Shown: positions 1 through 64,000, counted from the stretch's first letter. The stretch is 64,000 nucleotides of DNA from Lytechinus pictus (GCF_037042905.1 NC_087245.1:3412001-3476000), one strand, 5' to 3'. The notes: generated from the sequence alone by a model not told the origin. A program made the numbers and translations.

Positions 1-120
1 ATATATATATATATATATATATTGTAAAGAAATTGATGAAGAGAACAATGGTAGGCGTAGCTTAAATCAAGGTTCCCCAGAGCTATCTACCCTTTGGAAA
101 ACTTGGTGATGCCGAAAAAA

Positions 121-1419
121 TGTCTCTGCCGGGAATCGAACCCGGGCCCCCAGCTTTGAACGCCGCACAGTGGGCCGGGGCGAAACAAAAGTGCGCCAAA
201 AGTCATTTTGGGCAATTTCAGAATTTTAATTTTTGTCATGCTCAGCTGAAAGACAACACTTTGAAGAATACTTCAGCAAAATATTTCATTCGGGAATTTG
301 CATAAAGGTTGTTAATTTCCTACCTCAAATCTTAAAATGTGACATTTTGCGAAATGCCGCGTGTATGACAACTTAGTTGAAAAACAAGCAATTTCACGGG
401 AGGTTTTTCATGTAGGAATCTGAAATGGCACCCACATAATCCTGTTATATTTTTTTTTTTCGTGTGAAATGGTCCAAATTAGATAAAAGACACATTTCAG
501 GAGGTTTATAGAACAATTATTCCTCGAAATAGGCTGATAATCCATGTTTTTAGCATTTACATGAGAAACGTTTGGATTTCCATGGATTTCCGTTTAAATC
601 CTATCATCATCATTTTGACAGATGTCTAAGCTTTAAGTCGATACCAAATTTAGCTGCCCGTTTTTGCCCGTTTTCATGTTAGAGCCGATTTTACTTGGCA
701 AAATACCCCCAAAACCTGTTCAAAAACGGTCATTTTTATACCGCACATTCATCGCAGCGCACCGTGTGGGGTGTTCATTGCCGTTCATTTTTGCACGGCG
801 AGGACGATTCCCCCTTCCATTCCATGAAAAAGACATGAATTCCGGGCATAATGCAAACAAAATAAAGGTTGATAACGCATATAAGGGCTACCCGCCCCTC
901 TTCCAGAGATAAAATTTAATTTACTAATTTCAGCCAAAAGCCCTCCTCACAGTAAAACATTCGTGGTCCTATATACTCTGCGTTTTACCCAAGTCTACAC
1001 CGCTTGATAAAGCACGGTTAAATTTTTTTTCAGATTTTTAATTATTTTTTTAATCTAATGATCACTTTGATGCCATATAATTATTTTCAGGATCTCATAC
1101 ACACTTGTTAGGCATGTGAGAAGCATAAACCAACATTCACTCTGGTCAATCTTAAAGTAACACATAACACAAAGTTTATATACTACACATTGTTTAGCGT
1201 AATTTGTCTTTTCACAGATAGGTTTTAAGTAGCCAATCAAAATTTGGTATCAAAGTGACGTCATATCGGCTTTAAATTATGTTCAGTAGATTCTACGCCC
1301 AAAATTACCCTTAATCAACATGTTAAAGTGAAAATATAACACGGAATATAATTTTGGCGCACTTTCAACTCATTCTGGCCCACTGTGCGCCGGTGCCTTA
1401 ACCACTAGACCACAGAGAC
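121..1419 (-). pseudogene. tRNA-like sequence with UCA anticodon, split by the Transib-like insertion
   Basis: Reconstructed minus strand: GTCTCTG TG GTCT AGTGGTTA AGGC A CCGGC GTTCAAA GCTGG GGGC CCGGG TTCGATT CCCGG CAGAGAC A. All four stems pair, and Pol III A and B boxes are present. Confidence 0.7.
166..1387. mobile_element. Non-autonomous Transib/RAG-like DNA transposon (1222 bp)
   Basis: Inverted termini CACAGTGGGCC at 166-176 and GGCCCACTGTG at 1377-1387. A second shared block AAAGTGCGCCAAAA lies at the same distance from each end. The 5-bp TSD CGCCG is at 161-165 and 1388-1392. The uninterrupted sister copy near 1791-1802 reads aacgccggtgcc and shows the empty site. No transposase ORF. 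Confidence 0.9.
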
Positions 1420-1752
1420 GGGTTAGTGGCTAGGGCGACCCCGATCCGATTGACCGTCAGATAGACAGATTTTCGACACTATACCAATTACAATTTCCTT
1501 TGTCGGGTGAAGGTGGGTTTAGAACAATGACAAACCGCCATGCTTCAGCTGGATCAAAGCTATTGCTTTGATACAGTACACGTATGGGAGAAAGTATACA
1601 AATATGTAAAGTTATACATGTACAACAGCTTTGGCAACTCTTTTATTTAAATATTGTAAAGAAATGGATGAAGAGAACAATGGTAGGGGTAGCTTAAATC
1701 AAGGTTCCCCAGAGCTATCTACCCTTTGGAAAAATTGGCGATGCCGAAAAAA

Positions 1753-1824
1753 TGTATATGCCGGGAATCGAACTCGGGCCCCCAGCTTTGAACGCCGGTG
1801 CCTTAACCACTAGACCACAGAGAC
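1753..1824 (-). pseudogene. Second, uninterrupted tRNA-like copy (72 nt, UCA anticodon) with a damaged acceptor stem
   Basis: Same cloverleaf as copy 1, but the 3' acceptor strand reads CATATAC instead of CAGAGAC and the T stem has one change (CCGAG). Confidence 0.65.
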
Positions 1825-1827
1825 GGG

Positions 1828-2100
<273 letters not shown>

Positions 2101-2608: not shown

Positions 2609-3412
2609 TGCGTCCCACAAAAAACGAAACCGAGATTTATCGATGATTTATCATAACTTAATCACAAATACAATAGACAAATGACCTACTATTGTAAAGC
2701 TTAGAATCTCCTCTTTCATCTAAAATTACTTAGATTATTTCTCATTTACGCATGAGTGAGCAAAAACAATTTGAAGAGGGGATACCAAAAAGTCATTTGG
2801 CGGGCTGTATCTGGGTTTCAAAAAGAAAACCACATTTTTAAAAAGTTCAATATCTGCTCTGTAATTTGATACCTCAATTACAGAAAATGGTCAGAAAATA
2901 ACAAGGTTCTGGTTATTTGAAATAAGGCTTGAATTTCAATAATTTCATAAAATTAAGAGGTTCTACAGGCTAGCGTTCAAACTCACTTTTGTTGAAGATC
3001 AGCCATGCATTAAGTCTTTTGTTAACCATGCGATATCTTCTGTGTGAAACCGGTGAAAACACGTTTATTTAATGAAATTATGGAAATACAAGCATTGTTT
3101 CGAGGGAACATAACTTTTTACTTATTGGCTATTTTTTGTGATTAAGGTATCAAATAAAAGAGCAGATATTGAACGTTTTAGGCATGTGATTTTCTCTTTG
3201 AAATTCAGATACCCCCGCCAAATGAGTTTTTGGTATCCTTTCTTCAATTTTTTTTTGCTCACTCATGCGTGAATGGGGAATAATCTAAATAATATCAGAT
3301 GAAAGAGGAGATTATAAGCTTTACATTGGTAGGTCATTTGTCTATTGTATTTGTGATTAAGTTATGATAAATCATCGCTTAATCTCGGTTTCGTTTTTTC
3401 TGGGACGCACTG
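2609..3412. mobile_element. Tc1/mariner-type MITE with long inverted arms (CAGTGCGTCCCA family), left tip clipped
   Basis: tgcgtcccacaaaaaacgaaaccgagatt at the left end and aatctcggtttcgttttttctgggacgcactg followed by TA at the right. The arms are complementary over about 300 bp, and a near-identical copy starts at 63406. Confidence 0.85.
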
Positions 3413-35714: not shown

Positions 35715-38700
35715 ATGACCTCTTCACATTATCCTCTACTTACAACCTACCTCTTCCCATTACACATCTACTCACCATCAACCTCTTCCCATTATACATC
35801 TACTCACTACCAAACTCTTCCCATTAAACATCAACTCACCAACCTATTCCCATTACCCCTCTACTCACTACCAAACACTTCCCATTACACATCAACTCAC
35901 TACCGACCTGTTCCCGTTACCCTACTACTCACCACCGTCCTATTCCCATTAACGCTTTACACACCGTCGTCCTCTTTCCATATACCTACTATTCACTACC
36001 GTCCTATTTCCATTACCACTCTACTCACCAACAACCTCTTCGCATTACCCCCTCTACTCACCACCGACCTCTTCCCATTACCCCTCTACTCACCACCGAC
36101 CTCTTCGCATTACCCCTCTACTCACCACCGACCTCTTCCCATTACCCCTAATCTCAACACTGACATCCTCCCATTACTCCTCTACTCACCACCGACATCT
36201 TCCCATTACCCCTCTACTCACCACCGACCTCTTCCCATTACCCCTCTACTCACCACCAACCTCTTCCCATTACCCCTCTACTCACCACCAACCTCTTCCC
36301 ATTACCCCTCTACTCACCACCGTCCCCTTCCCATTATCCCTCTACTCACCACCGTTCCCTTCCCGTTACACATTCTACTCACTACCAAACATTTTCCAAT
36401 ATCCTCACTACCAAACTCTCCCCATTACACATTTACTCACTACCAAACTCTTCCCATTACACATGTACTCACTACCGACCTGTTCCCGTTACCTTACTAC
36501 TCACCACCGTCCTATTCCCATTAACGCTTTACACACCACCGACCTCTTTCCATATACCTCCTATTCACTACCGTCCTATTTCCATTACCTCTCTACTCAC
36601 CACCGACCTCTTCCCATTACACATCTACTCACCAACAACCTCTTCGCATTACCCCTCTACTCACCACCGACCTCTTCCCATTACACATATACTCACCAAC
36701 CTATTCCCATTACCCCTCTACTCACTACCAAACACTTCCCATTACACATCAACTCACCAACCTATTCCCATTACCCCTCTACTCACTACCAAACACTTCC
36801 CATTACACATCGACTCACTACCGACCTGTTCCCGTTGACCTACTACTCACCACCGTCCTATTCCCATTAACGCTTTACACACCGTCGTCCTCTTTCCATA
36901 TACCTACTATTCACTACCGTCCTATTTCCATTACCACTCTACTCACCACCGACCTCTTCCCATTACCGCTCTACTCACCAACAACCTCTTCGCATTACCC
37001 CCTCTACTCACCACCGACCTCTTCCCATTACCCCTCTACTCACCACCGACCTCTTCGCATTACCCCTCTACTCACCACCGACCTCTTCCCATTACCCCTA
37101 ATCTCAACACTGACATCCTCCCATTACTCCTCTACTCACCACCGACATCTTCCCATTACCCCTCTACTCACCACCGACCTCTTCCCATTACCCCTCTACT
37201 CACCACCAACCTCTTCCCATTACCCCTCTACTCACCACCGTCCCCTTCCCATTACCCATCTACTCACCACCGTTCCCTTCCCGTTACACATTCTACTCAC
37301 TTCCAAACTTTTTCCAATATCCTCACTACCAAACTCTCCCCATTACACATTTACTCACTACCAAACTCTTCCCATTACACATGTACTCACTACCGACCTG
37401 TTCCCGTTACCTTACTACTCACCACCGTCCTATTCCCATTAACGCTTTACACAACACCGACCTCTTTCCATATACCTCCTATTCACTACCGTCCTATTTC
37501 CATTACCTCTCTACTCACCACCGACCTCTTCCCATAACACATCTACTCACCAACAACCTCTTCGCATTACCCCTCTACTCACCACCGACCTCTTCCCATT
37601 ACACATCTAATCACTACCAAACTTTTTCCAATATCCTCACTACCAAACTCTCCCAATTACACATCTACTCACGACCAAACTCTTCCCATTACACATGTAC
37701 TCACTACCGACCTGTTCCCGTTACCTTACTACTCACCACCGTCCTATTCCCATTACCGCTTTATACACAACCAACCTCTTCCCATTGCACATCTACTCAC
37801 CACCGACCTCTTCCCATTGCACATCTACTCACCACGAACCTCTTCCCATTACACCTCTACTCACCACCAACCTCTCCCCATTGCACATCTACTCACCACC
37901 GACCTCTTCCCATTGCACATCTACTCACCACCAACCTCTCCCCATTGCACATCTACTCACCACCGACATCTTCCCATTACACCTCTACTCACCACCAACC
38001 TCTCCCCATTGCACCTCTACTCACCACCGACCTTTTCCCATTGCACAGCTACTCACCACCGACCTCTTCCCATTGCACATCTACTCACCACCGACCTCTT
38101 CCCATTGCATATCTACTCACCACCAACCTCTTCTCATTATCCCTCTACTCAGCAACGACCTTTTTCCAATTACCCCTCTACTCACCACCAACCTCTTCTC
38201 ATTACCCCTCTACTCACCACCAACCTCTTCCCATTACCCCTCTACTCACCACCAACCTCTTCTCATTACCCCTCTACTCACCACCAACCTCTTCCCATTA
38301 CCCCTCTACTCACCACCAACCTCTTCCCATTACCCCTCTATTCACCACCAACCTCTTCCCATTACACCTCTACTCACCACCAACCTTCTCCCCATTGCAC
38401 ATCTACTCACCACCGACCTTTTCCCATTGCACATCTACTCACCACCGACCTCTTCCCATTGCACATCTACTCACCACCAACCTCTTCTCATTATCCCTCT
38501 ACTCAGCAGCGACCTTTTTCCAATTACCCCTCTACTCACCACCAACCTCTTCTCATTATCCCTCTACTCAGCAGCGACCTTTTTCCAATTACCCCTCTAC
38601 TCACCACCAACCTCTTCCCATTACCCCTCTACTCACCACCGACCTTTTCCCATTACCCCTCTTCTCACCACCAATCTCTTCCCATTACCCCTCTACTCAC

Positions 38701-38890
38701 ACCAACCTCTTCCCATTACCCCTCTACTCAGCACAAACCTCTTCGCATTACCCCTCTACTCACCACCGACATCTTCCCATTACCACTCTACTCACCACCA
38801 ACCTCTTCCCATTACCGCTCTACTCACCACCAACCTCTTCCCATTACCCCTCTACTCACCACCAACATCTTCCCATTACCTTTCTACTGT
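35715..38890. repeat. 32-bp minisatellite, about 3.2 kb, with higher-order duplication
   Basis: Unit CCCCTCTACTCACCACC(A/G)ACCTCTTCCCATTA. Diagnostic variants recur at offsets of 918-950 bp, for example atctcaacactgac at 36151 and 37101. Confidence 0.95.
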
Positions 38891-41031: not shown

Positions 41032-42777
41032 AGCAGTTGTGTTTCCTCAGGGAAACTCCCTGGTTTCCTTTTGTGCTAATACTCCCGTCATATGGATGAG
41101 GTTCTTAACAATACTGTACTTTGGTATTCTTTATTGTATTATTCACCATATATATCGAAAATGCTTATGGAGAGATTTGAAAGACAGTAATGTAGCTCAA
41201 CCTTTTTCCTTTCCTAAAACGAATCGACTGAACATGGTCGTCTGTACTTATTTTATCAGAATATGATACAACTCAAAAATGTAAAATTGTAATGAAATAA
41301 ACAGGATGATAAAATATGTTTTTAAATAGCATTTTTAATAGTCATCATTATAATAAGTACTCCATTCCCTTAAGATGAGTACGTGGGTCCATGGTGCAAT
41401 AGTGTAATGTTTTTAACGTGCATCGGTTGCGACCCTCCTATACAGGGGACCAACATTTGTATCCTTTCCGATGGACGGGACGTTTTTTAACTACATTCAC
41501 ACCTGCACTGAATACAATGATGAGGCACGCTATCACAAAACGCTATAACATCTTTTATTTTATTTGGGTATGTTTTCGATGTAGATGCCATGATTTCATT
41601 TTTAAAAGCTGCTGCTTTCTTATCTTACTCTATAACTTGAATAGGTTGGGTATTTCTTTATATTCTGAACTTTAATGTTATATATTTATCTCGTGAATCA
41701 TATTTTGTGAAGTTTACGTGCATTGGATAATATGGAACGTTTGATAGGATTTTACGGGTTTACACTTGTTTTTTTATAACTCATCCTCTGAATTTTTTAA
41801 TGATAGCTTTAAAATAAATAATAAATAAATGATATACAGCATTGAAAGGAACTCGAATGCGAAAAATCGCCAGATATAACGTGACTTCTATCTCAATACT
41901 GACATGTGCCATTAAAGTGTTTTTACAAATAAACGTTCAGGCGAAAAATTGTAAAGACGGTCCTTAAACGACCAGATTGAAGAACGGTCGTATTCTGTAG
42001 GAAATATAGTCTTTTATCACTAAAGTAAAACTTCTAGACCTTATTCTCTATAGACCTTCAATTGTGGACAACACGGGGTTCTATATTTCTTCCTGTATTA
42101 AACCGTCAATATTTCTTCAGGCTATGTCATGTCATCATCGCTCATTGAATGAGAAACAAAAGGTCGATGTGTACTTCTAATCCTATCAAAAACCCATCCG
42201 TTATCTTGATGACGTCACCAACATGCTTTCCAGCACAGAAATTGGATTATCGGATGTTGCAAGGTTTGTTGGTATTGGCGTAGGGGATGATGATTAGTAA
42301 ACTGTACAGAGTTGGAAGGGATATCGGAGCAGCCAAGGACCTAACATTTCTGAATTCACAGGGATTTAAAGGGATTTTTTTTTCCATAGATGAATCTGAC
42401 CTTTATAACAGTTTTTACCGTAGATAAATATTTGTTCGTCTTTTACCAATGATAGTCTGTAGAATGATACTTACTATATCAACCAATACATAGCAATCGC
42501 CTACGACGATGATCCAATCAGCCATAAGAATTTACACCAGCGTCATTGATTAATTGTTATTTAGGGACCATTATTGCACAAAAATTGCATAGTTACCTTT
42601 ATAATTACCAATACGTTATAAAACAAACCAATAGACCCGAAGAACTGAACTGCACCATAAGATATATAATAATCAGAAAAGGAGTATTGAAACCCAAGAC
42701 CCAACAAATAAGAGCTCTCATCTTACCTACTTTGTGTATCATAAATGTTATCTGACAATAACAGGAGTTGAAGTATA

Positions 42778-45062
42778 CAGTTGAGGCCAATAGTTTACCT
42801 ACACCCATGGAATTCAGTGAAATTTGTTCGCTTGCCAAACATCGTAAAATTTACTATATCTTCAAAAATATAAATACTACCATGCCGAATTTGGTATCAA
42901 ATGAAAGAGTGTATTCAGCTCTTTTACAATCACGATTAGGATGCTGTTGGGATTGATTTCTTTGAAGAAAAAAAGTAATATTCGTGCCAAATATATTCTA
43001 TTGTTTGTTAGTATATTTTCGAACATCATTTTATAGTAGACCGGCCAAACGTCAAAAAGGGCTTCTAGATAAGGATTCCACGGCAAAATTTGTTAATGCT
43101 TGGCATCCCAGCTAAAATTCTTGCAAAAATACCCAGGAATAGCGTACGGCCGGATGCCAAGCGCACTTTTGCGTGAAAGTGTCATTTTAGCGTAAAATGT
43201 GAAAGGATGTCAAAAATCACGCATTTTGGTATTTTTGACGGAATATGTAAACATTTTTGATTATCTTTGATATGCGATCCTTTTTATTTGGAGTTTCAAA
43301 TTATAATACTCATAAATATACATTTCAAATTTTAATATTAAACACACATATATGGCACAGTAAAATATACAATCGCGATTTCCTCAAAATAAAAGTTTTT
43401 GAAAACTATCAATAGTTTGAAGTTTTTTACGCAAATTAAAATTCTTCGATTTAAATTCGTTATCCATCGAATGTATAGTAAATGTCCCAATGCCACAAAT
43501 ATTAAAAGAATTGAAGAACGGAAGAGCCGTGGTGTAGTGGTTCTGATTCTCGCCTTGTAAACAGAGGGTCGTGTGTTCGAATCTCACCGCGGTCTAGCGT
43601 CCTTTGGCAAGGCGTTAATCCACACTTTGCCACTCTCGACCCAGGTGCTAAATGGGTACCCGGTAGGATGCGAAAGATATTGTATGTTTGATTTTGCCAG
43701 CGCCATAATGAGGCTGCGATGAATGCAAGGAATGCTCCCCAGGGAGTGGAAATTGTGCACTTTTCGTGCGGGATTGAAATGAATCCAATGACCGGGGTAA
43801 TAATATGCTGTTACGCGCTTTGAGCCGTTATCCGAAATGAAACAATGTGTATCTAACCATGTGCGCATTTTGAAAGAAAAATTGAAAATACCGTACATTA
43901 TGTACATTATGTACATAATTACATGCATAAGTACATACAAATACGAGCAAAAATTGTCAATTCTTAGCATCCCAGCTTAAAATCTTGCGGAAATACTGAG
44001 GAATAACGTACGGGCGGCTGTCAAGTGCACTTTTGCGTGAAAGTATCAGTTTTAGCGTAAAATCTGAAAGAATGTCGAAAATAACGCATTTTGATATTTT
44101 GACGGAATTTGTATAAGATTTGATTTCCTTTGATACGCAATCCTTTTTATTTGGAGTTTTAAATTATAAGCCTTCTAAATATACATTTCAATTTGGAATA
44201 TTACACAAACATATATGGCACTATGAAACATAAAACCGTGATTTACTCGAAATAAAAGTTTGTGAATACTATCAATATTTATACGTTTTCTAAATGGGTT
44301 TATCTATTGAATATCAATCGTTCTAATGTCACAAAATATTTAAAGAATTTTCAAGTAAGATGACAGGTATATTATCCGAAAGGGGACATGCATAATTTAT
44401 CGGGGGGAATTTTCACAAACTTTTATTTTGAGGAAATCGCGATTTTATGTTTCACTGTGCCATATTTGTGTGTGTAATATTCAAATTTGAAATGCATATT
44501 TATGAGACTTATAATTTGAAACTTCAAATAAAAAGAATTGCATATCAAAGATAATCACAAACTTTAAAATAATCCGTCAAAAAAACAAAATGCGTGATTT
44601 TCGACATTCTTTCATATTTTACGCTAAAAATGACACTTTCACGTGCGCTTGGCATCCGGCCGTACGCTATTCCTGGGTATTTTTGCAAGACTTTTAGTTG
44701 GGATGCCAAGCATTAGCAAGCATTAACAAATTTTGCCGTCCAAAGTATAAAAAACGTTTTGGCCGGTCTACTATTATAGAAATTGCATAAAAAGTAACAA
44801 GCAAAAATATGAAATGTTTTTGTCAATTTTTTTTTTTTTTTGTCTAAAATATGAACATTTTAGGGGGAAATGACACCTAAATATTTTCAGCTCCTGATGA
44901 CAAAGCAATGTGATGAAGAGGCATGACATACTCATTTGTTTGATATCAAATTCGTCATGATAGCACAAATATTTTACAAAATACAGTAAATTTTATGATG
45001 TTTGGCAAGTGTCAACTTTTCTTTGAATTTCCTTGGTGTATGTAAACTTCTGGCCTCAACTG
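42778..45062. mobile_element. Non-autonomous Tc1-like element (2285 bp) with long inverted arms, an internal duplication and a nested SINE
   Basis: TA|CAGTTGAGGCCAATAGTTTACCTACAC at the left end and GTGTATGTAAACTTCTGGCCTCAACTG|TA at the right. About 43080-43400 is mirrored at about 44410-44740 and repeated directly at about 43960-44350. Confidence 0.88.
43524..43830 (+). mobile_element. tRNA-derived SINE nested in the Tc1-like element
   Basis: A box TGGTGTAGTGG and B box GTTCGAATC, followed by a non-tRNA body (cactctcgacccaggtgctaaatgggtacc). The 3' boundary is approximate. Confidence 0.8.
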
Positions 45063-45766
45063 TATTATGTACAATTTTATTACAGCCACTTTGAAGAGTA
45101 AGGTTGGAAAAAAATTGTTTTAATCTTTTCACCAAGTAATATCGCGATACATATTGTAGTAAATGAAAACTTGTCTTTTGGAGATTTAAAAAAAAAGTGA
45201 ATTTCCAGCCCCTTTTCTTAGTCTTCAGATGGAAGTCGCGATTAGAAATGCATTGCTTCATTGTCATGCCTTATTGAGACCTCAATGATTCTTCCTAAGA
45301 ATATTTTTGTTTACCTGTATTCTTTTTAGTCCTAATTCAGATGTCATTTTGCCTTCACCTAAGCTCATGAAGCACTAGTAATAATGTGCCCAAAATAAGA
45401 TAAGGCGCAATGTGAAAACTATAAGGAGAATAAAAACCGTCCAATACCAATAAAGAAAAGTGGGAATTGAATATATAAATTCAAATAGCTCATGATGAAT
45501 TGTGAGTAATTGTTTTGTTAATGGTAGAGGTAGTAGTGGTATTGATGATGATGATGATGATGTTGGTGGTGTTGGTGGTGGTGGTGGTAGTGGTGATGCT
45601 AGTAACTGACGTCATCGTGGTGGTAATTATATTTCTTCAGATTTATTTCTAATTACTTCATACACAATGATGTACAGAAATGGAAAACAGCAATCGAGTA
45701 TTCTCTTAACAAAGGTCCGAAAATGCGATTTGTTGAGTGCATGTATGTCGTTTGATTCACGGGATG

Positions 45767-49265: not shown

Positions 49266-49515
49266 GACCGGTGTGTTAGTTCAGTTGGTAGATCGTCCGT
49301 CTGACAACTGGGTGGTCGGGTGTTCAAACCCCGGCCGCGTCAGACCAAAAGACGTTAAACGATGGGAGTTGTTGCTACCATATTTGGCGTTCAACGATTC
49401 CAGGGATAGAGCTACGTAGACCTGGTGTTGCACTGTGGCTGCCGGGCCCACGATTAATTGGGCAAAACTAATTTTCAGAGGATTTCTGTTTACGATGTCT
49501 GTTTCGAACAATGAA
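49266..49515 (+). mobile_element. tRNA-derived SINE, second family
   Basis: A box TAGTTCAGTTGG and B box GTTCAAACC, followed by the body gtcagaccaaaagacgttaaa...ttggcgttcaacg. Confidence 0.75.
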
Positions 49516-56640: not shown

Positions 56641-56750
56641 ATTTTGTGAAAGAAATGGTTTTCTTGAAAGAAATGGATGAAGAGAACCATTTCTTTCACA
56701 AAATGTTTAAATAAAAGAGTTGCCAAAGCTGTTGTACATGTATAATTTAT
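56641..56750. repeat. Rearranged inverted fragment of the 21-1828 repeat forming a 64-nt hairpin
   Basis: About 56687-56745 is the reverse complement of about 1612-1667. Arms at 56641-56665 and 56680-56704. Confidence 0.8.
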
Positions 56751-56754
56751 TACA

Positions 56755-56798
<44 letters not shown>

Positions 56799-61394: not shown

Positions 61395-62168
61395 ATCCCA
61401 CGCGCTCAACTCGCACAATGATCTTGACCTGACACACTCAACAACAATAATTTTCCAAACCCCCACAAACATATCCTAGCACCTAATCTCACACACTCAA
61501 CTAACACAATGATCCCAACCCAACGCACTCACGCAGCACATTGATCCCAATTCCACACTCTCACCTACCACAATTAACCTAAACCCAACACACCTACAGC
61601 TTAATGTTTTCGAAGCCCACACATTCAACTACCACTATGATCCCGACCCCACTCACACAACTAGAACAACTATCCTGACCCCACCCACTCACTTAGCACA
61701 ACGATCCCGACCCCACCAACTCACCTCGCACAGTGATTCCAACCCCACGCATTCACCTAGCACAACGATTCCGACCCCACCCACTCACCTAGCTCGACGA
61801 TCCGGACCCCACACACTCACCTCGCACAGTGATTCCAATCCCACACATTCACCTAGCATAGCAATCCCTATCCCACACACGCCCACCGACCATAATTATC
61901 CCGAGCCCCATACACTCTCCAAGAACAACGATCCGGACCCCACCCACTCACCTATCACAACGATCCCGACCCCACCCACTCAACTACTACAATGATCTTG
62001 ACCCCAAAAAATCACCTACCACAATGATCCTGACCCCAAACACTCACCCATTACAACGATCTCGACCCCACACACACACACCTAGCACAACGATTCCAAC
62101 CCCGTAACTTACCTAGAATAATGATCCTAACAGCACACACTCTCCCTTAACACGATGGTCCCAACCCC
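61395..62168. repeat. Degenerate 32-bp minisatellite
   Basis: Unit approximately CCCACTCACCTAGCACAACGATCCCGACCCCA; tcacctag recurs at 61753 and 61785. Confidence 0.9.
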
Positions 62169-63379: not shown

Positions 63380-63405
<26 letters not shown>

Positions 63406-63408
<3 letters not shown>

Positions 63409-64000
63409 TGCGTCCCACAAAAAACGAAACCGAGATTTATCGATGATTTATCATAACTTAATCACAAATACAATAGACAAATGACCTACCATTGTAAAGC
63501 TTAGAATCTCCTCTTTCATCTAAAATTACTTAGATTATTTCTCATTCACGCATGAGTGAGCAAAAACAATTTGAAGAGGGGATACCAAAAAGTCATTTGG
63601 CGGGCTGTATCTGGGTTTCAAATAGAAAACCCCATTTTTGAAAAGTTCAATATCTGCTCTTTAATTTGATACCTCAATTACAGAAAATGGTCAAGAAATA
63701 ATAAAGTTCTGGTTATTTGAAATAAGGCTTGAATTTCAATAATTTCATAAAATTAAGAGGTTCTACAGGCTAGCGTTCAAACTCACTTGACGATCAGCCA
63801 TGCATTAAGTATTTTGTTAACCATGCGATAGCTTCTGTGGGAAACCGGTGAAAACACGTTTATTTAATGAAATTATGGAAATACAAGCATTGTTTCGAGG
63901 GACCATAACTTTTTTACTTCTTGACCATTTTTTGTGATTAAGATATCAAAAAAAGAGCAGATATTGAACTTTTTAGGCATGTGATTTTCTTTTTTTAATT
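63406..64000. mobile_element. Second copy of the CAGTGCGTCCCA Tc1/mariner MITE, truncated by the window end
   Basis: (TA)n|CAGTGCGTCCCACAAAAAACGAAACCGAG, nearly identical to 2609-3200. Confidence 0.9.

Follow-up and report, generated by a model that had tools for sequence, protein, structure and literature searches.

Features of the Locus

The window, meaning the whole 64,000-nt stretch of Lytechinus pictus DNA that was analysed and to which all coordinates refer, carries near its start two copies of a minus-strand tRNA, one split and one uninterrupted, within a partly duplicated repeat unit of which a further fragment lies at 56667-56764. The features are as follows.

1-21, (TA)n tract flanking the element 3', truncated at the start of the window
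22-114, minus strand, 3' arm that follows tRNA copy A and belongs to the second occurrence of a repeated 177-nt segment; the element ends near 22 (equivalent to 1654 in copy B)
115-120, minus strand, T6 (Pol III terminator-like) directly after the copy A discriminator
121-165, minus strand, 3' part of tRNA copy A (tRNA positions 28-73), of which 161-165 represent one of the two 5-bp target duplicates
166-1387, 1,222-bp non-coding Transib-type DNA element with CACAGTG ends, in the anticodon arm of copy A
1388-1392, second 5-bp copy of the target duplication
1393-1419, minus strand, 5' part of tRNA copy A (positions 1-27, A box)
1420-1467, minus strand, anti-tRNA leader: diverged antisense D arm, variable loop, T arm and 3' acceptor strand, without the anticodon arm
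1468-1594, minus strand, 5' arm of a predicted rod, pairing with the sequence 3' of the tRNA; includes an 8-bp hairpin (1572-1553) and, in the family majority, a B-box-like motif (1525-1517)
1595-1653, minus strand, optional 3' extension; 1623-1614 pairs with 1585-1576
1654-1746, minus strand, 3' arm of the rod after copy B
1747-1752, minus strand, T6 directly after copy B
1753-1824, minus strand, tRNA copy B (ARAGORN, Rfam), uninterrupted, with private changes at 1756, 1758 and 1774
1785-1793, minus strand, anticodon loop region matching GTTCRANNC
1825-1830, minus strand, 6-nt leader forming the 5' end of the local insertion
1829-2117, 145-unit (TA)n tract flanking the element 5'
56667-56764, plus strand, piece of the 405-bp unit anchored at the 3' end (1667-1595, 87%), preceded on its 5' side by 24 nt in inverted orientation and followed by (TA)n

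Inspection of the sequence revealed that the 1,222-bp insert at 166-1387 is bounded on each side by CGCCG, a 5-bp duplication, while duplications of 3, 4 or 6-11 bp around the insert gave no match. Removal of the insert and one duplicate yields a 72-nt minus-strand cloverleaf, copy A, which was detected by ARAGORN with the same stems and loop as in the reconstruction proposed in an earlier note made from the sequence alone: an acceptor stem with 7/7 Watson-Crick pairs, a D stem of 4 bp including one G-U, an anticodon stem of 5 bp including one G-U, the loop GTTCAAA with the anticodon UCA, a variable loop of 4 nt, a T arm with 5/5 pairs and the discriminator A73. Copy B (c1753-1824) was detected by ARAGORN as well as by Rfam (RF00005, 44.3 bits) and is the sole Rfam match that reaches the gathering score within the 64-kb window, matches other than tRNA all being far under it. 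The two copies differ at 3/72 positions. Both are damaged, as had been claimed, copy A being split by the insert and copy B carrying three stem changes, of which the earlier note had recognised the two acceptor mutations (1756, 1758); the T-stem change at 1774 is added here.

Regarding the insert, the first 11 bp of its ends are identical (28/36 overall), both ends have an A-rich nonamer-like run 23 bp past the heptamer, and the left end has a second such run after 12 bp. These RSS-like termini and the 5-bp GC-rich duplication identify it as Transib-type, and its heptamer starting with CAC, its nonamer-like run and its GC-rich 5-bp duplication resemble what is described for non-autonomous Transib elements in parts of PMC1131882. 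No transposase was seen within 166-1387. The insert is multi-copy in the DNA contigs of two runs from organism A (X1 and X2) and has a different flank in those of organism C (X14).

Insertion Anatomy

The local element is a partial tandem of 582 nt, or about 1.4 units, in the order (TA)n, tRNA copy B, 3' arm, internal part, tRNA copy A, 3' arm, (TA)n. An internal part of 228 nt is enclosed, in the manner of pseudo-LTRs, by two direct repeats that each bear a tRNA and are about 177 nt long, such that 22-165 plus 1388-1425 duplicates 1654-1830, and 12-165 is 94% identical to 1644-1797. Other copies of the family in the public runs stop at 1595, 1605 or 1612, inside (TA)n/(TG)n, which places their ends 42-59 nt past the local element end at about 1654. 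At 56641-56764, inverted pieces of the 3' fragment of the unit make a local palindrome, followed by (TA)n.

Several characters of PLE insertions are thus seen, namely (TA)n on both sides, an inverted truncated piece, an optional tail and a partial tandem, and the probable assignment of the family to the Penelope type rests on this anatomy. No autonomous PLE partner was seen.

The 405-bp Unit and Its Family

Four of the 24 public runs listed were aligned to window positions 1300-1828, comprising DNA contigs of organism A (X1, X2) and of organism C (X14) and raw rRNA-depleted RNA reads of organism B (X23). Depth is high over 1388-1828 and records join 1792 to 1388, both in DNA contigs (X2, X14) and in 14,255 RNA reads; this junction and the high depth therefore define a unit of 405 bp (1426-1830), and the tRNA, described as repeat-borne in the earlier note, is indeed part of an abundant repeat. 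Matching contigs number 5,576 in X1 and 9,868 in X2, and the summed depth at the tRNA is about 617,000 in X1 vs 50-83 for the eight longest X1 contigs listed, from which a family of roughly thousands of copies can be read, depth itself being no copy number. In X14, the unit and the insert end are present at low depth and in a ratio about as in organism A, a signal that is due either to a relative with few copies or to a trace of another organism's DNA. Except for frames running through the TA tract, no ORF of at least 120 aa is present in the unit.

At the three sites private to copy B (1756, 1758, 1774), the pair-restoring letter is carried by 99.6-99.8% of the summed depth in X1 and X2 and by 98.9-99.8% of the X23 RNA reads. 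Because about 99-100% of the depth restores pairs at these sites, the perfect cloverleaf, with 21/21 stem pairs, represents the family majority and copy B a damaged member. The majority sequence has the cloverleaf, A box, B box and terminator all present. There are 82 variant entries in all, and each of the 40 listed reaches about 15% or more in some run; among these 40 of 82, the tRNA is hit only at the three sites above, and the variable anticodon that the earlier note had named as evidence against its proposal was not encountered in the anticodon loop, while rarer anticodon variants may be among the 42 unlisted entries. The tRNA has 0/72 variant sites vs 23/333 elsewhere in the unit (p 0.02; the 23 sites are the 40 listed entries minus 17, namely 6 in the insert, 9 private to the window copy and 2 second alleles). 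The 3' arm is almost equally conserved (1/109 variant sites), and a conservation specific to the tRNA was rejected on that account.

Transcription of the Unit

Of 8,710,588 X23 reads, 90,567 (1.04%) fall on 1300-1828 in this single rRNA-depleted run from one sample. In most stranded libraries a first mate on the plus strand denotes tRNA-sense RNA, and the first mate is on the plus strand for 99.86% of the reads over 1426-1785. Depth is 23,300-44,000 across all 20 bins of this interval, the control being the neighbouring insert end with depths of about 35 and 8 on its two strands. The tRNA-to-insert depth ratio is about 1,490 in RNA vs 28-65 in DNA, the RNA and DNA runs differing in organism label.

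The 14,255 junction reads continue from the tRNA into sequence upstream of it (another loop is seen in 69 reads), 7,871 reads extend past the ends of the stretch aligned, and the RNA passes through T6. As the RNA spans both the unit junction and T6, it is multimeric or circular, circles and linear multimers being indistinguishable in short reads. No pile of starts or ends was found on the main RNA strand within 1300-1828, positions 1829-1830 lying just outside. Depth over the doubled segment is 1.5x that of the single segment, which is compatible with linear partial-tandem transcripts or a mixture. X23 is a long-RNA library, tRNA-sized molecules being outside its range. Many alleles are of intermediate frequency in the RNA. 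At 1521, about half of the organism B transcripts carry an allele making the third B-box-like site more canonical, and this allele is at only 0.1-0.3% in organism A DNA.

Predicted Rod Fold and Antisense Leader

For folding, 11 positions of the unit were changed to the majority letter. The resulting 405-nt unit is predicted to form a rod centred on the tRNA (-144.2 kcal/mol), with z values of -7.0 for the linear and -7.1 for the circular form and -4.8 for the antisense strand (40 shuffles each); for the unedited local copy z is -3.4 and 0/100 shuffles are equally stable. The 48 nt before the tRNA constitute the leader, which pairs with the tRNA in 35/46 Watson-Crick columns and has a 19-nt gap exactly over the anticodon arm, its complementarity score being 27.5 vs a best of 19 in 1,000 shuffles. 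An assignment of 8/10 leader-tRNA differences to the leader side was discarded as circular, the retrieval pattern having fixed 31 letters.

In the full unit, the predicted pairing probability is 0 for the acceptor, D and T arms and 1.0 for the anticodon arm, and this pattern is predicted for the alleles of organism A as well as organism B, in linear and circular form alike; a forced cloverleaf is predicted to be 23-29 kcal/mol worse at 37-15 C. If the leader has at most 6 nt, the predicted pairing probability is 1.0 for the acceptor and only 0.19 for the D stem, and with at least 15 nt of leader that of the acceptor is 0. Since the leader is complementary to the tRNA, the acceptor, D and T arms are predicted to be masked unless the transcript starts at the tRNA.

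Regarding selection on the rod, variants break a rod pair at 4/23 sites vs 48% expected (p 0.003; energy permutation p 0.03), p values that are generous, given that common descent links the variants and that the predicted structure itself comes from the same majority sequence. The bias of G-U vs A-C between the arms is 7:4 and not significant (p 0.27), and selection on the rod at the level of the RNA strand is therefore unsupported by that test. The arms align as a diverged inverted repeat with 107 Watson-Crick columns (score 55 vs a maximum of 46 in 300 shuffles).

Anticodon Loop, B Boxes and Decoding

Pattern scans for relatives returned 0 and 0 loci in metagenome contigs and 0 in viral contigs, and a looser pattern of the D and T arms returned 1 locus, a viral Glu(TTC) tRNA. 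The resemblance of the arms to tRNA-Glu put forward in the earlier note agrees with this retrieval, the pattern itself having fixed 31 letters; for the same reason, the identities of 15/18 in the D arm and 20/21 in the T arm are circular and were not used. The anticodon arm is the only part of the comparison outside the retrieval pattern, and the comparison is with this one viral tRNA, not the host's own. Positions 28-37 match Glu(TTC) at 8/10 positions when shifted by one base and at 4/10 unshifted; the UCA thus aligns with bases 35-37 of the Glu loop, and the same slip also places a purine at 32. A pyrimidine at 32 is near-universal in tRNAs, and with G32 the tRNA lacks this character of functional cytosolic tRNAs. 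That G32 is atypical, as the earlier note held, agrees with a C32/A38 pair being common in the tRNAs covered by parts of PMC7293025.

The B box has the pattern GTTCRANNC, and three matches to it are found in the unit, at the expected B box of the tRNA, in the anticodon loop and at 1525; two or more matches occur in 0.1% of 20,000 shuffles and three in none. The slip and the B-box match fit a non-decoding reason for keeping UCA and G32. As for charging, eukaryotic Trp identity elements named in parts of PMC9976931 and PMC1538984 are A73, G1:C72, C35 and A36, all of which the tRNA carries; C34, a major determinant for human TrpRS (PMC1538984, in part), is replaced by U34.

Comparison with Known Systems

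Animal non-LTR retrozymes, as far as described in portions of PMC7229834 and bioRxiv 10.64898/2026.07.22.740005, resemble the unit in their short non-coding tandem units (a few hundred bp) of low GC and in an abundant structured RNA, and they are proposed to derive from PLEs as non-autonomous elements; PMC7229834 also describes a size of 150-450 bp and circularisation by RtcB. The junction reads fit circles or multimers, where retrozymes have circular monomers. The unit is without a hammerhead on either strand and has instead a full tRNA, T6 and an antisense leader: both strands lack an exact CUGANGA core, a core with stem II and GAAA was absent from the sense strand at one mismatch, the only candidate of the search being a weak antisense one, and no Rfam ribozyme family matched at E up to 10. 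In its working the unit is most like an animal retrozyme, save for the hammerhead by which these are defined.

Naiad PLEs in the passages seen of PMC8557442 have partial tandems or pseudo-LTRs, inverted 5'-truncated copies, an optional tail of 30-40 bp, (TA)n targets and no hammerhead. Naiad/Chlamys PLEs and their non-autonomous derivatives therein share with the unit the pseudo-LTR tandems, the inverted truncated pieces, the short tail (42-59 nt in the unit), (TA)n and the lack of a canonical hammerhead; the unit differs in having no ORF, and no tRNA module is described in that main text, where 'tRNA' has a single mention, on Sec recoding. The tail of PLEs reflects two start sites of reverse transcription, according to the relevant part of PMC11167929.

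The Helenus/Cassandra/Ajax TRIMs, in the sections of PMC10886601 seen, likewise have a small-RNA gene in the terminal repeat, which is taken as a Pol III promoter, and in Helenus the tRNA lies in two direct repeats and can inflate predicted sets of suppressor tRNAs. In contrast to Helenus-type TRIMs, the unit has no CA end, no PPT and no readable 4-bp duplication, and has microsatellite targets and an antisense leader. The UCA anticodon is shared with tRNA-Sec, and ARAGORN labels the tRNA SeC, a label it often gives wrongly to repeats (PMC5330540, in part). According to that part of PMC5330540, tRNA-Sec is 90-101 nt long, with an extended variable arm, 13 bp of acceptor plus T stem and G73, whereas the tRNA of the unit has 72 nt, a 7/5 fold, a 4-nt variable loop and A73, which bears out the earlier note in setting tRNA-Sec aside. 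Tandem insertion, the internal position of the tRNA and T6 directly after it distinguish the unit from tRNA-derived SINEs, with which it shares A and B boxes, a simple-repeat 3' end and high copy number. No paper among those searched describes a tRNA-bearing hammerhead-free PLE derivative or an antisense-masked tRNA repeat; Repbase, subscription papers or the Helenus consensus may contain the family.

Interpretation

The tRNA is probably, with confidence only a little above even, a module of a young, non-coding, non-autonomous Penelope-type retroelement, with a build like that of a retrozyme and no hammerhead. The long RNA would form a rod in which, by the fold prediction, the acceptor, D and T arms are opened by the antisense leader and only the anticodon hairpin persists; a transcript beginning no more than about 6 nt from the tRNA would take up a cloverleaf-like fold and then meet T6. 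The tRNA gene may have been retained as an internal Pol III promoter, with its A and B boxes and two further B-box matches, and as a structural module; the leader may have been born as an old inverted duplication of the kind that PLE insertion makes and would shield the RNA of the element from tRNA-processing nucleases, and a PLE reverse transcriptase would copy this RNA in trans into (TA)n. The UCA would have come about incidentally when a loop of the Glu(UUC) type slipped by one base, would have become fixed in a master copy and would have no role in decoding. Against the Penelope-type reading, a Pol III transcript should halt at T6 and the long RNA passes it, and the cloverleaf is more perfect than a promoter requires. 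How the RNA of hammerhead-less PLEs is made and processed is described as an open question in parts of PMC8557442, and the unit offers a small, abundant and testable case of it, in which deletion of the leader alone should flip the fold; if the Penelope-type reading is true, it would make a tRNA-based addition to retrozyme-like RNAs.

Of the other explanations, a rather unlikely one holds that the unit is an analogue of a retrozyme in which cloverleaf and rod alternate and host tRNA-processing enzymes replace the hammerhead in cutting multimers to monomers and circles, the cutters being RNase P/Z, or an anticodon-loop nuclease followed by RtcB. Unit size and tandem layout fit the animal retrozymes in the part of PMC7229834 cited above, the RNA spans the junction and neither starts nor ends pile up on the main strand, canonical tRNA geometry is preserved though the acceptor and anticodon stems differ from those of the Glu tRNA compared, and the leader skips exactly the anticodon arm, which has a predicted pairing probability of 1.0 in linear and circular folds; however, the 1.5x depth over the doubled segment is that of linear partial-tandem transcripts, a cut site is not visible as a pile of ends, and hammerhead cleavage is dispensable for PLE insertion in vitro (PMC11167929, in part). 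A broader picture, held with similarly low confidence, is that of a hammerhead-free, viroid-shaped selfish animal RNA, a 405-nt rod making up about 1% of non-ribosomal RNA that bears a complete tRNA beneath an antisense mask: with the mask off, the tRNA would be a Pol III promoter product and a signal for host enzymes of tRNA processing and ligation to cut and circularise the RNA in lieu of a ribozyme, with the mask on it would protect the template of the PLE reverse transcriptase, and a small UGA-reading tRNA with a Trp-like acceptor identity could be released as a side product from thousands of Pol III templates. An unlikely reading is that of a fold-back or MITE-like DNA element or satellite, with arms that pair by descent from an inverted duplication and RNA that comes from a few strongly transcribed arrays. 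The inverted-repeat score of the arms, the absence of a G-U bias and the folding of the antisense strand speak for it, but the local insertion starts and ends inside the unit and not at arm ends, the ends are variable and run into microsatellites, the RNA alleles of intermediate frequency point to many transcribed copies, and variants avoid breaking rod pairs.

A true UGA-reading tRNA, started by Pol III at the tRNA, stopped at T6, charged most plausibly with tryptophan and suppressing UGA, is very unlikely. The full cloverleaf of the majority copy with A box, B box and T6, the predicted acceptor pairing with a leader of 6 nt or less, the lack of an anticodon variant among the 40 of 82 entries listed (and of another loop in all but 69 reads vs 14,255) and the eukaryotic Trp identity elements G1:C72, A73, C35 and A36 (PMC9976931 and PMC1538984, in part) are in its favour. 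On the other side stand U34 instead of C34 (PMC1538984, same part) and a C:G rather than U:G pair 5, the atypical G32, a loop interpretable as a Glu loop after slippage and as a B box, a D stem predicted to pair weakly even without the leader, the role of mobile elements in predicted suppressor-tRNA sets, such as the Helenus tRNA-Sup-CTA (PMC10886601, in part), and the harm that a strong suppressor at such copy number should do to its host. The UGA-suppressor option of the earlier note is thus unsupported, given the predicted masking of three of the four arms and the origin of the UCA/G32 loop suggested by register slip and second B box. Its other option, a SINE-like head, is contradicted by the 170 nt of element sequence that precede the tRNA in most family RNA and DNA, by T6 after it and by the layout of copies as partial tandems in (TA)n. 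It is extremely unlikely that the unit is an ordinary tRNA-headed SINE whose head has been well kept: the 5'-most local copy does start 6 nt before the tRNA and the 3' end does enter a simple repeat, but T6 follows base 73 directly, the 170 nt upstream are family sequence in DNA and RNA and antisense to tRNA and body, and copies are tandem, so that the junction reads already largely refute this reading. Just as improbable is a Helenus-type TRIM consisting of LTR (with tRNA), internal part and LTR and mobilised by a Gypsy element. A 228-nt internal part does lie between tRNA-bearing direct repeats of about 177 nt, and on the plus strand the repeat begins with TG and is followed by TGG; the repeat ends in GGGTTA and not CA, however, the TGG stretch is the anti-tRNA leader itself, purines make up only 5/15 (plus strand) and 6/15 (minus strand) positions before the second repeat, hence no PPT and no PBS/PPT pair, no 4-bp duplication is readable in (TA)n and family ends vary.

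Whichever reading holds, the unit is a warning that 'SeC' or suppressor tRNA predictions in a genome of this kind can number in the thousands and yet stem from one repeat. Were the short Pol III product charged, it would amount to an opal suppressor that occurs naturally in an animal and is amplified by a repeat, and such a finding would be highly surprising.

Other Features in the Window

A further 14 relaxed ARAGORN calls in the window were not accepted as genes. A tRNA-Val(GAC)-like sequence at 49270-49342, found at the relaxed ARAGORN threshold only and under the Rfam gathering score, is possibly a SINE head. An element of about 800 bp with 196-bp inverted ends (91% complementary) lies at 2609-3409 and has a second copy, 95% identical, at 63400-64000. 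Strand-skewed minisatellites with 32-bp units are present at 35717-38888 (about 100 copies) and 61490-62142 (16 copies), and nested inverted and direct repeats of 350-770 bp at 42775-45065 are probably fold-back elements.
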